IMG/VR virus record: IMGVR_UViG_3300025015_000009
Coordinates: 64,001 to 128,000 of that record
Strand: one strand, 5' to 3'
From: a virus
Taxonomy: Duplodnaviria > Heunggongvirae > Uroviricota > Caudoviricetes
DNA: 64,000 bases
Shown: positions 54,589-64,000 of the stretch, piece by piece
Position numbering within the stretch: the stretch's first letter is position 1
Layout of the letters: every line of letters starts with the position of its first letter
Notes under the pieces: generated by a model
What the model was told of the DNA's origin: nothing
Seen by the model: the letters and a program-made list of their open reading frames with translations, nothing else
Databases searched by the model: none
Program-made: the position numbers and the translations under genes

Positions 54589-54681
54589 TGGTACTCCTGC
54601 TGGGTAACGCTCCCAGGACTTGCCCTCATCTAGAGCCTTGGCAGTTTATAAATCTGCTTGTTTTCTTTAAACTACAGGAGC
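54589..54681 (-). tRNA. Atypical tRNA-like gene, anticodon UAU (Ile), long variable arm, non-canonical T-loop
   Basis: GCTCCTG/CAGGAGT acceptor, ACCA end, GCAG/CTGC anticodon stem. Confidence 0.55.
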
Positions 54682-60954: not shown

Positions 60955-61069
60955 TGGCGGCGCACCGATTAACACGTTACCTGTATCGCTACGACCTTTA
61001 TGAGCGTCCCCACGAGTCGATGTAACAATCTAACGTGAATACGTCCGGACCGGACGTATTCGATGCGCC
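60955..61069 (-). ncRNA. tRNA-like RNA with 10-bp acceptor stem and GCCA end
   Basis: GGCGCATCGA / TCGGTGCGCC-GCCA; non-cloverleaf body. Confidence 0.55.
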
Positions 61070-61074
61070 AAACT

Positions 61075-61149
61075 TGGTGCTCATGGTGAGAATCGGACTC
61101 ACAACCTCCTCATTACCAATGAGGTGCGCTGCCATTGTGCTACACGAGC
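61075..61149 (-). tRNA. tRNA-Thr(GGU)
   Basis: CCTCA-TTGGTAA-TGAGG; ACCA. Confidence 0.85.
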
Positions 61150-61155
61150 AAATCT

Positions 61156-61232
61156 TGGCGTCCCTGCACGGAATCGAACCGCGTCTATTCTGATTTTGGA
61201 GACCAGTGCACCACCACTTATGCGTCAGAGAC
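61156..61232 (-). tRNA. tRNA-Trp(CCA), atypical A8/C9
   Basis: CTGGT-CTCCAAA-ATCAG; GCCA. Confidence 0.8.
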
Positions 61233-61243
61233 ATTCTTAATAC

Positions 61244-61319
61244 TGGCAGAGGGTGTAGGAATCGAACCTACTTTTGTACAGGTTCAAAACCTGTTGCATT
61301 ACCATTCCGCGTACCCCCT
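61244..61319 (-). tRNA. tRNA-Gln(UUG), second copy
   Basis: ACAGG-TTTTGAA-CCTGT; GCCA. Confidence 0.8.
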
Positions 61320-61354
61320 AATTACTACATTAACCCATCGGGCTAGTTTGATTC

Positions 61355-61425
61355 TGGTGCGGGTGGTGAGACTCGAACTCACAACCTCCTCGTTGGCAAC
61401 GAGGTATTCTGGCCAATACACCTAC
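61355..61425 (-). tRNA. tRNA-Gly(GCC)
   Basis: CCTCG-TTGCCAA-CGAGG; ACCA. Confidence 0.75.
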
Positions 61426-61499
61426 TATAATCGTGGTGTTAGTGCGTCTTACATCGCAACTGTGTTGCCACTAGCACTGAATCGCTTCTATGCGGTAAT

Positions 61500-61573
61500 T
61501 GGCATCCCATGAGAGAATCGAACTCCCACAAAGAGATTTGGAGGCTCTTGTGCTACCTTTACACCAATGGGAC
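61500..61573 (-). tRNA. tRNA-Trp(CCA), second copy
   Basis: CTCCAAA loop; GCCA. Confidence 0.75.
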
Positions 61574-61727
61574 ATCGACTCTACAACTAATATCGCGCAA
61601 ACCTGCACAGGATTGTTGCTACTGCAACCTCACGGATAACGAGGCAACATGGCAACCCATTACTGAATTGTTATCCCATATTTACTTTCCCTGCTTTCGT
61701 TCTTGGCGTTTACATTCTTGCGATAAC

Positions 61728-61803
61728 TGGCGGGGGAGGTAGGAATCGAACCTACGAAAAACTGCCTCAGAAGCAGCGGCAACAGCCATTATGCGCCTCC
61801 CCT
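61728..61803 (-). tRNA. tRNA-Gln(CUG)
   Basis: CTGC-TTCTGAG-GCAG; GCCA. Confidence 0.8.
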
Positions 61804-61916
61804 ATAAAACTTAATTTGTCACACCCTCACATTGTGGCTATCCCAACGAACCCATCCCCTGCGACTTAACGCCTGCTTCAAGGCTCACGGCTTAGTTATT
61901 GAGCACGACAAAACTA

Positions 61917-61992
61917 TGGTGAACACGTCCGGTCTCGAACCGGAGACCTGAGCATTAAGAGTGCCCTGCTCTGCCAACTGAGCTACGTGTCC
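61917..61992 (-). tRNA. tRNA-Lys(CUU)
   Basis: GGGCA-CTCTTAA-TGCTC; ACCA. Confidence 0.88.
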
Positions 61993-62031
61993 GTCAATCG
62001 AAATACACTTGTTGAAATGCATTTTGATTGC

Positions 62032-62117
62032 TGGTAGGGGCGGTGAGACTCGAACTCGACCTCTAACTTACGTTGCCGGATTAAAAGTCCGGTGCCTGAC
62101 CTCTAGGCTACACCCCC
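62032..62117 (-). tRNA. tRNA-Lys(UUU) with long variable arm
   Basis: CCGGA-CTTTTAA-TCCGG then about 17-nt V-region. Confidence 0.7.
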
Positions 62118-62288
62118 AAAGCATTGTTACCTTGTCCAACCTACGCTGTGCTTTAAAGGTCTTGCCATGCACACCGTTTCCTGCGTTTCGTTTCATTAAT
62201 GCCACCACAACATGATTGCGTGGTGGCATCGGTTTTCGTTTCATAATGTTCTCCTTAATTTAATTCTTCGTCATTACCTTTAACCATT

Positions 62289-62365
62289 TGGTGCCCCGTG
62301 AGGGATTCGAACCCCCGACCCGTGAGGTAGAAGCTCACTGCTCTAGTCCACTGAGCTAACGAGAC
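62289..62365 (-). tRNA. tRNA-Arg(UCU)
   Basis: GTGAG-CTTCTAC-CTCAC; ACCA. Confidence 0.88.
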
Positions 62366-62371
62366 AATAAT

Positions 62372-62698
62372 CTACCAGTACCAGCTTGCATCCTTAACCC
62401 GAACCATCTTAGGGACTTCAAACTGCTCATTCCCTAATTTCTTCCAGCGATGGATAGCTTGCTTTTCGATATTGGTTGCTACTTTGTTTCTCCAACGGCG
62501 ATACCAGTGTGGTGGGGACTTTTTACAGTAACTCCCGAAACCAGCATCACTGTGATACACCGCCAATTTCTTTTTTCCCTCTTTCGAGTGACGGTCGATA
62601 ACACTTGTAACTCTTGTATCAAACCAGGCGCAAGCATAATGGATCAGCACCCAATCATAATTGTGTTTGACATTCTTCCTGCGAATCGTTCTTGCCAT
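62372..62698 (-). CDS. Basic hypothetical protein
   Basis: ORF track; AAGGAG RBS. Confidence 0.65.
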   Translation of the reverse strand: MARTIRRKNVKHNYDWVLIHYACAWFDTRVTSVIDRHSKEGKKKLAVYHSDAGFGSYCKKSPPHWYRRWRNKVATNIEKQAIHRWKKLGNEQFEVPKMVRVKDASWYW

Positions 62699-62761
62699 GA
62701 TAATTCTCCTTTTAAGATAACTATTTCATGGTGAACTCCTTTCTTCGTTAGGTTAAAAATT

Positions 62762-62803
62762 TGGTATCCTTGACTGGACCCGAACCAGTGACTTCTGCGT
62801 TAT
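62762..62803 (-). pseudogene. Orphan tRNA 3' half
   Basis: ATAA-CGCAG-AAGTC-ACTGGTTCGGGTCCAGT-CAAGGAT-ACCA. Confidence 0.75.
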
Positions 62804-62877
62804 TGGTAGGACGGGAAAGAGTTGAACTTTCGTAACTGGCTTATCAAGCCAACATTCTACCGTTGAATTACCGCCCC
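62804..62877 (-). tRNA. tRNA-Ile(GAU), overlapping the endonuclease stop codon
   Basis: TTGGC-TTGATAA-GCCAG; ACCA. Confidence 0.8.
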
Positions 62878-63468
62878 AATAAACTGCTTAGTAAGTTGTT
62901 CTTTTGTCAAAACATACAACTTAACATTATTTTGTTCTTTAACTTTTCGTATTTTTTCAGCATCACACTTTGCTTTGTAATCGTTCTTTGGGTCTAACCA
63001 CACCTCAAAGTCTACCAAGTAGAAATCAGCAAAATAATTTTTACCGTCATACTTTAATGCCTTTGGTCGTATCCAGTTAACCCCTAACTCACAAAGAATT
63101 TCAAAGCAAGCGTACTCATATGTGCTTTGCAAAGTAGTGCTGTTGCCATATGAGTCAAACACCTTGAATTTCTTTGTTCTACCTGCAAGAGGTTGATACC
63201 CTCCGAAACCGCGCGCCTTAGCAACTATAGAGAGACGAGCCTTTGTTGCCGCTGACACCGTATGTGACTTACCAAGCTGTCCCAAACTCTTTAACTGCAC
63301 CCGTACATCCGTCGATGCAGTTTTCCCTTTATTCCACGCCACCCGCCGCACAGGTATTGCGGGTATTACGCTAGGACAAATTCCCACGGTGTGACTTCGT
63401 GTTAGTTGGCCTGTAGTGGTTTCGCGTCTACATTTTAAACACGAGCAGATTATCTGATGTTTAGTCAT
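62857..63468 (-). CDS. Free-standing homing endonuclease (NUMOD3-like plus PD-(D/E)XK)
   Basis: WNKGK; QSTYE...YFADFYL...LDPK. Confidence 0.7.
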   Translation of the reverse strand: MTKHQIICSCLKCRRETTTGQLTRSHTVGICPSVIPAIPVRRVAWNKGKTASTDVRVQLKSLGQLGKSHTVSAATKARLSIVAKARGFGGYQPLAGRTKKFKVFDSYGNSTTLQSTYEYACFEILCELGVNWIRPKALKYDGKNYFADFYLVDFEVWLDPKNDYKAKCDAEKIRKVKEQNNVKLYVLTKEQLTKQFIGAVIQR

Positions 63469-63496
63469 ACGCTTAGTCTAACACAAGGCTACCAAA

Positions 63497-63533
63497 ATCA
63501 AGATTGCACTCTAGCCAACTGAGTTACGGAAGC
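63497..63533 (-). pseudogene. Orphan tRNA-Ile(GAU) 5' half
   Basis: GCTTCCG-TA-ACTCAGTTGGCTAGAGT-G-CAATC-TTGAT, ends right after the anticodon. Confidence 0.75.
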
Positions 63534-63567
63534 ATTAACATTAGAATAAATGAATTTGAAAAATTTA

Positions 63568-63651
63568 TGGAGAACAATAGGAGAATCGAACTCCTCACCT
63601 TTCGGTCCATTGGATTTGCAATCCAAGACATTGCCACTCTGTCAATTGTTC
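63568..63651 (-). tRNA. tRNA-Cys(GCA) with long variable arm
   Basis: TTGGA-TTGCAAA-TCCAA; U73; V-arm ACC-GAAA-GGT. Confidence 0.78.
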
Positions 63652-63679
63652 TCTATAAACCTCTCCATCTAAGTACATT

Positions 63680-63798
63680 TGGTCCGAGGAACGGGAGTCG
63701 AACCCGTATGCCCTTACGGGCGGCAGATTTTCAGAAACACCCGTTTTTGACAGATGCTTGAAAAAGTCTGCTATGGCTACCAATTACATCACCCTCGG
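63680..63798 (-). tRNA. tRNA-Leu (probably UAA) with 32-nt anticodon-loop insertion
   Basis: Leu-type body (long V-arm, A73); stem GCAGA/TCTGC encloses 39 nt. Confidence 0.8.
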
Positions 63799-63811
63799 AT
63801 AATACTGTATT

Positions 63812-64000
63812 TCAATGCTTTTGTTTTAATGCCAGCGAAATCTTTCGTTTATGTTCTTCAGATTTCGGTTTACCTTTATTCACAGCAGCACATTTGTTCC
63901 CTAACTTCATTCTACTATTTCTAGCACATGCTTCTTCGTATCCATACTTTTGCACCGAACGTTCCCACGGATTTTTATATCCCCCGGGTTGTTCTGCTCT
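63812..64000 (-). CDS. C-terminus of a probable homing endonuclease (NUMOD3), partial
   Basis: NKGKPKSEEHKRKISLAL. Confidence 0.6.
   Translation of the reverse strand, partial: RAEQPGGYKNPWERSVQKYGYEEACARNSRMKLGNKCAAVNKGKPKSEEHKRKISLALKQKH

Follow-up and report, generated by a model that had tools for sequence, protein, structure and literature searches.

Transfer RNA introns of bacteria and their viruses are, in the literature searched, self-splicing ribozymes (PMC3984707), and protein-dependent tRNA splicing has been described for archaea and eukaryotes (PMC4090602). Devoto et al. (2019) reported "enigmatic" introns in the tRNAs of Lak megaphages and stated that phage tRNA introns were previously unreported (PMC6784885). 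Two further systems are relevant here. In the psbA gene of cyanophage S-PM2, collaborative homing has been established for an intron that lacks an open reading frame (ORF) and a neighboring free-standing endonuclease gene (PMC6083498). The T4 enzymes Pnkp and Rnl1, in turn, ligate in vitro the halves of pre-tRNAs that an endonuclease has cut, and in vivo they substitute for yeast Trl1 (PMC1920235). Here, we describe a tRNA-Leu(UAA) gene interrupted by a short hairpin in a 318,013-bp IMG/VR virus record (IMGVR_UViG_3300025015_000009; CheckV completeness 91%), which represents a giant phage from groundwater metagenomes. Bases 64001–128000 of this record, i.e., the whole analyzed stretch of 64,000 nt, are referred to as the window, and coordinates are those of the window unless a genome or locus is named. 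The gene carries a 32-nt insert between U34 and A35 of the tRNA. No paper describing this family of hairpin tRNA-Leu inserts or its splicing was found in the literature searched.

Read from 63798 to 63680, the class-II tRNA is complete, with a 7-bp acceptor stem (CCGAGGG/UCCUCGG), A73 and an encoded CCA, a 3-bp D stem, a long variable arm, and a T arm with UUCGACU, whereas the anticodon stem GCAGA/UCUGC encloses a loop of 39 nt. The cloverleaf, the A73 discriminator, the T loop UUCGA, and the anticodon UAA that appears once the insert is removed are those of a class-II bacterial-type tRNA-Leu. The first acceptor pair, C1-G72, is an oddity; the related locus L051 has the same pair and the same unusual CCGAGGG strand. 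With the intron search enabled, ARAGORN reports tRNA-Leu(taa) i(36,32) with the intron tttcaagcatctgtcaaaaacgggtgtttctg, corresponding to 63732–63763 of the plus strand; at default settings, without the intron search, the gene at 63680–63798 is missed. The Rfam tRNA model RF00005 matches with 33.5 bits (gathering threshold 29) and a 35-nt insertion in the anticodon loop. The predicted fold of the whole 119-nt RNA has an energy of -45.6 kcal/mol (z = -3.8) and shows the insert hairpin as an extension of the anticodon stem. Logan contigs from two runs, which may be the source sample, are identical to the window over positions 61000–64000. Contigs of four DNA runs only repeat the known sequence, and no insert-free variant was found among them. 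For the same positions, no RNA data set was listed as containing the sequence. The insert is single-copy in the 318-kb genome, and a repeat or a miniature inverted-repeat transposable element was rejected on this ground.

From a single sequence the removal is ambiguous, as the anticodon could become GAA, UAA, UUA, or UUU. The ambiguity is resolved by related phages, sampled at 41 loci that surround homologues of an RF1-like gene of the tRNA array. Six of these loci contain uninterrupted class-II tRNA-Leu(UAA) genes, all six with the loop CUUAAAA, and in one of them (L030) the anticodon stem is identical to that of the interrupted gene. Excision of exactly 63732–63763 restores the same loop. 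Hence, the position of the insert is fixed between U34 and A35, and the insert is the derived state. The sequence-only reading had already placed a 32-nt hairpin at these positions and at this bond of a tRNA-Leu(UAA), and had recommended looking for it in relatives; the placement agrees with ARAGORN, Rfam, and the six uninterrupted orthologues, and the genes of related phages proved to be either uninterrupted, with CUUAAAA, or interrupted by hairpins at the same site. Exact-pattern scans of IMG/VR with the 3' exon, with the 5' exon plus the start of the insert, and with the joined exons gave no match, so that no near-identical relative or intronless allele of exactly this tRNA is at hand. The neighboring 108-aa protein, used as a query for related loci, gave no relatives, and when GenBank phages were searched by megablast with the 12-kb region, nothing beyond chance tRNA matches was obtained.

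The insert is one of a family of similar elements. Candidates were collected with a pattern of AGACTT, a gap, AAAATCT, and a T arm, the scanned insert length being 25–42 nt, and were filtered for paired acceptor and T stems. The scan of IMG/VR gave 25 loci, about 18 of them genuine and representing 15 distinct sequences; in metagenome contigs the same pattern matched at least 119 stretches, with about 18 further distinct cases among the matches listed. After filtering, 32 distinct inserts in phage tRNA-Leu(UAA) remained among the matches listed, all at U34|A35. Together with one insert in a tRNA-Leu(UAG), again at U34|A35 and present in loci L046 and L063, they make up the 33 inserts on which the family statistics are based. 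Clear homologues of the present insert are found in several loci (e.g., L051, L062, L063, L114, and L118). Uninterrupted genes with the same anticodon arm are far more common, with at least 119 loci in IMG/VR.

The same pattern matched 36 positions in 185,579 bacterial and archaeal genomes, taken one per species, and none of these (0/36) was genuine: they were chance occurrences of AGACTT, or a preceding gene, ahead of a normal tRNA-Leu. A blastn search with two family members against 50,697 GenBank phage records returned exon-only matches, and thus no cultured phage with the insert. Within these pattern-limited scans, the family is confined to viral and metagenome contigs.

All family inserts, 31–38 nt in length, share one plan. 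The 5' tail is 4–5 nt long in 30 of 33 inserts, with the consensus Y-U-N-C-R; it is followed by a hairpin with a stem of 10–14 bp (31/33) and a loop of mostly 3–6 nt, and by a 3' tail of exactly 3 nt (27/33). In the MAFFT alignment, intron positions 2 and 4 are U and C, and stem pair 2 is A-U, in at least 90% of inserts. The first base is a pyrimidine in 32 of 33, and the last base is A in 14, C in seven, G in six, and U in six. The present copy fits this plan with UUUC, 10 bp, and CUG; the covariance model R1, whose training sequences include it, scores it at 51.3 bits (E = 3e-9).

Some inserts lie outside the search pattern: a 45-nt insert at U34|A35 of another tRNA-Leu(UAA) (L131:850–979, plus strand) and a 39-nt hairpin-type insert in a tRNA read by ARAGORN as Gly(UCC) (L095:4576–4690, minus strand). 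The family is therefore wider than the 25–42-nt scan window. A class-I tRNA on a contig of genome G003 (L099:1204–1303, plus strand) has a 33-nt anticodon loop with a hairpin, AAGUACAUCC/GGGUGUAUUU, which resembles the tRNA-Leu insert, but no removal with the usual tail lengths yields a sensible 7-nt loop. Other "introns" reported by ARAGORN in tRNAs of the fetched loci were mostly mispredicted tandem tRNAs or long variable arms and were discarded.

The hairpin is selected as RNA, on the tRNA-sense strand. Over the 33 inserts, 353 stem positions comprise 288 Watson–Crick pairs, 62 G.U pairs, and a single A.C; read on the other strand, the G.U pairs would all become C.A mismatches. Accordingly, the mean minimum free energy is -12.4 kcal/mol for the sense strand versus -7.0 for the antisense strand, with the sense strand better in 31 of 33, and the mean z-score of the insert folds against shuffles is -4.5. 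The present hairpin contains three G.U pairs and hence pairs only on the tRNA-sense strand. A covariance model trained on 22 members was used to align 32 matches (24 distinct). In this alignment, itself produced by the model, 86.6% of cells pair, compared with 65.3% in shuffles (0/500 shuffles reach the observed value), and the covariation score is 0.595 versus 0.208 (again 0/500). When the partner columns are slid, pairing falls to 34–57%. Changes on both sides occur in eight of the ten hairpin pairs, and 22 of 32 sequences retain U.G as stem pair 8. The pair counts together with the covariation of the stem indicate selection on the fold of the tRNA-sense RNA.

The exons, in turn, are intact in all of the approximately 33 diverged members, and removal of the insert always yields a perfect 7-nt loop, CUUAAAA or CUUAGAA. 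Neither G003 nor the complete 202-kb genome G004 has any tRNA-Leu besides the interrupted one, and in the complete 345-kb genome G001 no other class-II tRNA-Leu has the anticodon UAA. Thus, the interrupted tRNA-Leu gene seems to be needed by the phage.

A gene for a 143-aa HNH homing endonuclease ends 13 nt upstream of the tRNA-Leu gene, on the same strand. Its product matches PHROG HNH and endonuclease families (6e-8 to 2e-4) and, faintly, the Pfam families zf-His_Me_endon and NUMOD3. A homing-endonuclease gene (HEG) directly beside an intron-bearing gene is the layout of collaborative homing. An HNH or other homing-endonuclease ORF is located within 100 nt of the interrupted gene in 10 of 34 family members. 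For members with flanks of at least 500 nt, an HEG within this distance was found for 7 of 23 insert-bearing genes, versus 15 of 574 other tRNAs from the same loci and 2 of 73 uninterrupted class-II Leu genes (Fisher p = 6e-6). A 51%-identical homologue of the HNH protein is encoded in the insert-free genome G013 (243446–243881, minus strand; L431), directly upstream of a class-II tRNA-Leu that has the anticodon CAA, the loop CUCAAAA, and no insert; this tRNA may be a resistant allele of the same target. Neighbors of another type were also observed, both of them resembling enzymes that heal RNA ends: a phrog_547 phosphoesterase 20 nt upstream of the interrupted tRNA-Leu in L047 (255–830, minus strand) and a P-loop kinase-like ORF 38 nt downstream of it in L148 (1021–1755, minus strand), the latter belonging to phrog_2071, a family that also matches the Pnkp kinase domain.

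As for the enzymes that could remove such an insert, the phage encodes an Rnl1 homologue (genome 286142–287251, minus strand; 369 aa; PF09511 at 1.9e-25, phrog_562 at 3.1e-74, with only a faint C-terminal match to T4_Rnl1_C), a full bifunctional T4-type Pnkp with AAA_33 and HAD_PNKP domains (genome 259085–260038, minus strand; L070:2085–3038; phrog_505 at 2.6e-87), and an Rnl2. An Rnl1-family ligase and a bifunctional Pnkp are the gene content of T4-type healing and sealing. A metallophosphoesterase (phrog_547) lies beside Rnl1 in this phage; this enzyme was rejected as being linked to the insert, since many insert-free phages have it as well. No Pnkp homologue was observed in six related genomes of giant phages (tblastn, E < 0.01), only small stand-alone kinases.

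Rnl1 co-occurs with the insert. Among records of at least 100 kb, it is present in six of nine that bear the insert versus 2 of 21 whose tRNA-Leu(UAA) is uninterrupted (Fisher p = 0.003); once lineages are collapsed, the numbers become 4/5 versus 3/23 (p = 0.008). In a whole-genome profile of the 1064 ORFs of this phage, contrasting insert-bearing G001–G003 with the complete insert-free genomes G012–G014, Rnl1 alone was present in all three of the former and none of the latter. A narrower split, G003 versus G013 and G014, leaves 50 unannotated candidates. The four nearest genomes split cleanly: G000 and G003 have the insert and Rnl1, and G013 and G014, the insert-free genomes closest to this phage, have neither and carry RtcB instead. 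No RtcB was found in this phage or in the other insert-bearing records. The sequence-only reading had suggested removal in trans by a nuclease and a ligase, among other routes, and had advised looking for RtcB or RNA ligase genes elsewhere in the genome. Of the two, the RNA ligases were found and RtcB was not; removal by nuclease and ligase is the best reading, Rnl1, Pnkp, and Rnl2 all being encoded, and that the insert is spliced at all is an inference. Three features went unnoticed in that reading: the membership in a conserved phage-wide family, the HNH gene 13 nt upstream, and the co-occurrence with Rnl1.

The family plan also constrains the cutting enzyme. The constant tail lengths, along with the conserved U2 and C4 and the U.G pair, suggest that the cutter is a protein and that it gauges distance from the hairpin or the tRNA body. 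RNase III was rejected, as its 2-nt 3' overhang is incompatible with a 5' tail of 4–5 nt and a 3' tail of 3 nt. RNase P and RNase Z cut at the base of a helix; they were rejected as well, because the cuts would here lie 3–5 nt away from it. No phage gene apart from Rnl1 tracks the insert; the nuclease therefore most likely comes from the host, or else is a phage enzyme retained in insert-free phages as well. If it leaves a 5'-phosphate and a 3'-OH, Rnl1 alone would be sufficient for sealing, and such sealing would fit the occurrence of the insert in Rnl1 phages and not in RtcB phages.

Taken together, these data suggest that the insert is a mobile, ribozyme-free, protein-spliced mini-intron of phage tRNA-Leu; to this reading, with the whole chain of steps that follows, we assign an even chance. 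At the DNA level, the insert would behave as a mobile or HEG-associated element that probably interrupts the target of the neighboring endonuclease in the DNA of the anticodon loop, as in collaborative homing. At the RNA level, tRNA-Leu would be made as a 119-nt precursor, in which a structure-specific endonuclease, most likely of the host or else a phage enzyme not confined to intron-bearing phages, would cut 4–5 nt upstream of the conserved hairpin and 3 nt downstream of it. The body of the tRNA would hold the exon halves together while the T4-type Rnl1 of the phage seals the anticodon loop, and the product would be an ordinary tRNA-Leu(UAA) with the loop CUUAAAA. More tentatively, the family may constitute a further kind of phage tRNA intron besides group I/II ribozymes and bulge-helix-bulge introns, a mobile hairpin of 30–40 nt that spreads among phage tRNA-Leu genes with free-standing HNH genes, is removed by a structure-measuring nuclease, and is sealed by Rnl1, with this sealing as a main reason for keeping Rnl1.

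Several observations weigh against a protein-spliced mini-intron. The evidence for splicing consists of DNA sequence, and neither EndA nor RtcB nor RNase III was found in the insert-bearing phage genomes; the stagger of the excised piece, a 5' overhang of 1–2 nt, is unlike the geometry of RNase III. The full Pnkp is confined to this genome, with none in the other 17 records searched. The link between Rnl1 and the insert is a correlation, and kinship confounds it: Rnl1 is missing from one lineage with the insert (G004, G006, and G008), which has another ligase-like gene beside a small kinase, and it is present in three insert-free records. The whole-genome profile is low-powered, as only 11 ORFs are common to the three insert-bearing genomes and other three-versus-three splits single out 0–6 ORFs. 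No gene is conserved beside Rnl1 across nine phages. With regard to mobility, an adjacent HEG is seen in only about 30% of members, and the contrast with other tRNAs is inflated because genes adjoining family members served to seed the HEG detector. Finally, the family itself was collected with a pattern that fixes AGACUU...AAAAUCU.

One rival explanation—that the gene is dead, having been inactivated by a selfish DNA-level insert (conferring, e.g., homing immunity) that is never removed from the RNA of a dispensable phage tRNA—is unlikely in our view. It agrees with the DNA-only nature of the splicing evidence, with the lack of a candidate nuclease in the searches, with the HEGs adjoining many copies, and with the presence of a second UAA-anticodon tRNA in the phage (genome 133770–133843); moreover, UUA and UUG codons could be covered by host tRNAs. 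An insert acting only in DNA, however, has no reason to form an RNA hairpin on the sense strand alone, to undergo compensatory changes, or to keep fixed tails. Nor is a dead gene expected to retain intact exons in all diverged members, or to be the sole tRNA-Leu of the complete genome G004 and the sole class-II UAA tRNA-Leu of G001.

RNA-level conservation would also fit a functional unspliced RNA, acting as a decoy with a masked anticodon for tRNA-targeting defense nucleases or as a chargeable, non-decoding leucine donor or regulator; a conditional tRNA and a decoy for anticodon nucleases were among the options named in the sequence-only reading. The anticodon bases are indeed buried in the extended helix, and the intact tRNA body, A73, and CCA make processing by RNase P and leucylation plausible; the leucyl-tRNA synthetase of E. 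coli does not read the anticodon. The co-occurrence with a tRNA-repair ligase could also reflect an arms race over anticodon-loop cleavage. We still regard a function of the unspliced RNA as improbable. The orthologues are plain decoding tRNA-Leu(UAA) genes at similar places in tRNA arrays, and the interrupted gene is the sole tRNA-Leu in G004 and G003. A decoy need not restore a perfect 7-nt loop when its insert is removed, and no anticodon nuclease specific for tRNA-Leu(UAA) was found in the searches made.

The remaining possibilities are known intron classes, none of which the family fits. An archaeal/eukaryal-type intron with a relaxed bulge-helix-bulge (BHB) motif, cut by an EndA-like enzyme and joined by RtcB, is very improbable. 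A mirrored BHB register, the only one that places the bulges, can be drawn in subfamily A, including the present copy, with C32-U33-U34 as one bulge, UUUC paired with A38-A35, and the 3-nt tail, whose constant length recalls a 3-nt bulge, as the second. The central 4-bp helix, however, has four pairs in 0 of 33 inserts, three in 12, and two or fewer in 21, and EndA-type cuts in this register, after the second bulge base, would yield an anticodon N-A-A with a variable first base rather than UAA. The EndA domain tRNA_int_endo (PF01974) was found in none of 18 phage records and in none of the bacterial control genomes, the positive controls being detected in archaea only, and RtcB occurs in no insert-bearing record. 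Given a non-conserved helix, cuts that would miss UAA, and no EndA in the phage records, the BHB class was rejected. Small self-cleaving ribozymes were rejected too, the sole Rfam match being CPEB3 at 18 bits (threshold 35) and no bases at the cut sites being invariant.

Least credible of all is a degenerate group I intron derived from that of cyanobacterial or plastid tRNA-Leu(UAA) and spliced in trans by, e.g., the putative dnaK group I intron of the phage, for the shared U34|A35 bond is its sole likeness to the family: 32 nt cannot accommodate a P3–P9 core of about 200 nt or more, Rfam group I models give no match at E <= 10 (window 63500–64000), no internal guide pairing is conserved, and nothing ties the dnaK intron to the insertion site. 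The sequence-only reading was thus right that the insert is no self-splicing ribozyme, being 32 nt long and without a group I core, and its proposal of the dnaK ribozyme found nothing in its support. Its remark that the exon ends in U and the insert in G holds for this copy and fails as a link to group I introns: the U before the 5' splice site is found in all members but is simply the anticodon wobble base U34, and the conserved terminal omega-G is lacking, G being last in only 6 of 33 inserts.

The interrupted gene is part of a minus-strand array of about 31 tRNA genes and a permuted tmRNA gene, which extends from about 54.5 kb of the window to beyond the window end, at 133.8 kb of the genome. 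The coordinates are collected in Table 1. Several presumed class I tRNAs of the array, all on the minus strand, have long variable arms or extra hairpins. The second UAA-anticodon RNA of the phage is an odd class-I-like tRNA of 74 nt (L001:7771–7844, minus strand). Short class-I-like tRNAs of 74–80 nt with the leucine anticodons UAA, CAA, UAG, GAG, or CAG occur in this phage and in its relatives (L007:7239–8970; L231:4632–5364; L235:4440–5172), alongside normal class-II tRNA-Leu genes. Between tRNA-Ile and tRNA-Cys, a 203-aa ORF (62857–63468, minus strand) matches a PHROG "Holliday junction resolvase" family at 2e-6; because its homologues sit within the tRNA arrays of G001 (222519–223136) and G002 (179118–179624), it is probably another tRNA-array-associated endonuclease.

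Table 1. Features of the interrupted tRNA-Leu(UAA) gene and of its surroundings; positions are those of the window unless the genome is indicated.
Feature	Position	Strand	Basis
tRNA-Leu(UAA) gene, 119 nt including the insert and 87 nt without it; CCA encoded	63680–63798	minus	ARAGORN -i, Rfam, fold
5' exon, tRNA positions 1–34, 35 nt, ending in GCAGACUU (U34)	63764–63798	minus	ARAGORN, alignment with uninterrupted orthologues
Insert (mini-intron), 32 nt, UUUCAAGCAUCUGUCAAAAACGGGUGUUUCUG	63732–63763	minus	ARAGORN, orthologue comparison, family membership
5' tail of the insert, UUUC	63760–63763	minus	family tail comparison
10-bp hairpin, AAGCAUCUGU / ACGGGUGUUU, loop CAAAA	63735–63759	minus	fold
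3' tail of the insert, CUG	63732–63734	minus	family tail comparison
3' exon from AAAAUCUGC (A35...), with long variable arm, T arm, A73, CCA	63680–63731	minus	ARAGORN, orthologue alignment
HNH homing-endonuclease gene, 143 aa (3' part in the window)	63812–64000; genome 127812–128243, past the window end	minus	ORF, PHROG, Pfam
tRNA-Ile(UAU), 93 nt, long variable arm or extra hairpin	54589–54681	minus	
tRNA-Lys(UUU), 86 nt, long variable arm or extra hairpin	62032–62117	minus	
tRNA-Cys(GCA), 84 nt, long variable arm or extra hairpin	63568–63651	minus	
tRNA-Thr(UGU), 83 nt, long variable arm or extra hairpin	genome 129088–129170	minus	
tRNA-Asn(GUU), 88 nt, long variable arm or extra hairpin	genome 130437–130524	minus	

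The new elements of this work are the statistics of the insert architecture, the strand-specific G.U evidence, the absence of the family from the cellular genomes scanned, the enrichment of HEGs beside it, and its association with Rnl1. A conserved, covarying, phage-restricted hairpin that interrupts the anticodon of an otherwise perfect tRNA and matches no known intron class implies either a ribozyme-free splicing route in infected bacteria or a novel function of a tRNA whose anticodon is masked. To our knowledge, the only established role of the widespread phage enzymes Rnl1 and Pnkp is repair after cleavage by the anticodon nuclease PrrC, and the insert offers them a concrete and testable job; if the proposal is true, routine splicing of the phage's own tRNAs, beyond such repair, would be a main reason why phages keep Rnl1. 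The system is small enough to be rebuilt from a 119-nt RNA, a 143-aa HNH protein, and a 369-aa ligase. For annotation, standard bacterial tRNA searches miss interrupted genes of this type.

Among described systems, the Lak introns (PMC6784885) are similar in being short, non-group-I inserts in phage tRNAs that are present or absent between relatives and conserved where present, and in having a splicing route reported as enigmatic. They differ in residing in other tRNAs (Tyr, Thr, and others), one of them being itself tRNA-shaped, and no common hairpin-plus-tails plan, HEG link, or ligase link was reported for them in that study; the present family, in contrast, is defined on tRNA-Leu at U34|A35 and has covariation support.

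The group I intron of cyanobacterial and plastid tRNA-Leu(UAA) occupies the same gene and the same U34|A35 bond, and it also occurs with homing endonucleases in bacteria and phages. It is, however, self-splicing, 200 nt long or more, and equipped with a conserved core and a terminal G, whereas the phage hairpins, 31–38 nt long, have neither a core nor a conserved terminal base.

The likely working analogue is provided by BHB introns processed by EndA or TSEN and RtcB or Trl1, where two cuts are guided by structure, the tRNA body keeps the halves together, and a ligase closes the anticodon loop; the phage insert differs in having no BHB motif, EndA, or RtcB, in its position at 34/35 rather than at the canonical 37/38, and in its occurrence in a bacterial virus. 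The T4 Pnkp–Rnl1 repair system directed against PrrC shares its enzymes with this phage and its type of substrate, a break in a tRNA anticodon loop, with the proposed route. In T4, the break is damage inflicted on host tRNA-Lys by a host defense nuclease, whereas the breaks proposed here would be two programmed cuts in a tRNA-Leu precursor of the phage itself.

At the DNA level, finally, the closest parallel is F-CphI and the psbA intron of the T4-like phage S-PM2 (Zeng, Bonocora & Shub 2009; PMC6083498), where an ORF-less intron likewise lies beside a free-standing HEG. That intron splices itself as a ribozyme, and the allele without it has been shown to be cleaved, whereas the tRNA-Leu insert is ribozyme-free and the HNH target is putative. 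In S-PM2 the intron shields the resident allele, and we propose that the hairpin may shield the phage tRNA-Leu gene in the same way.

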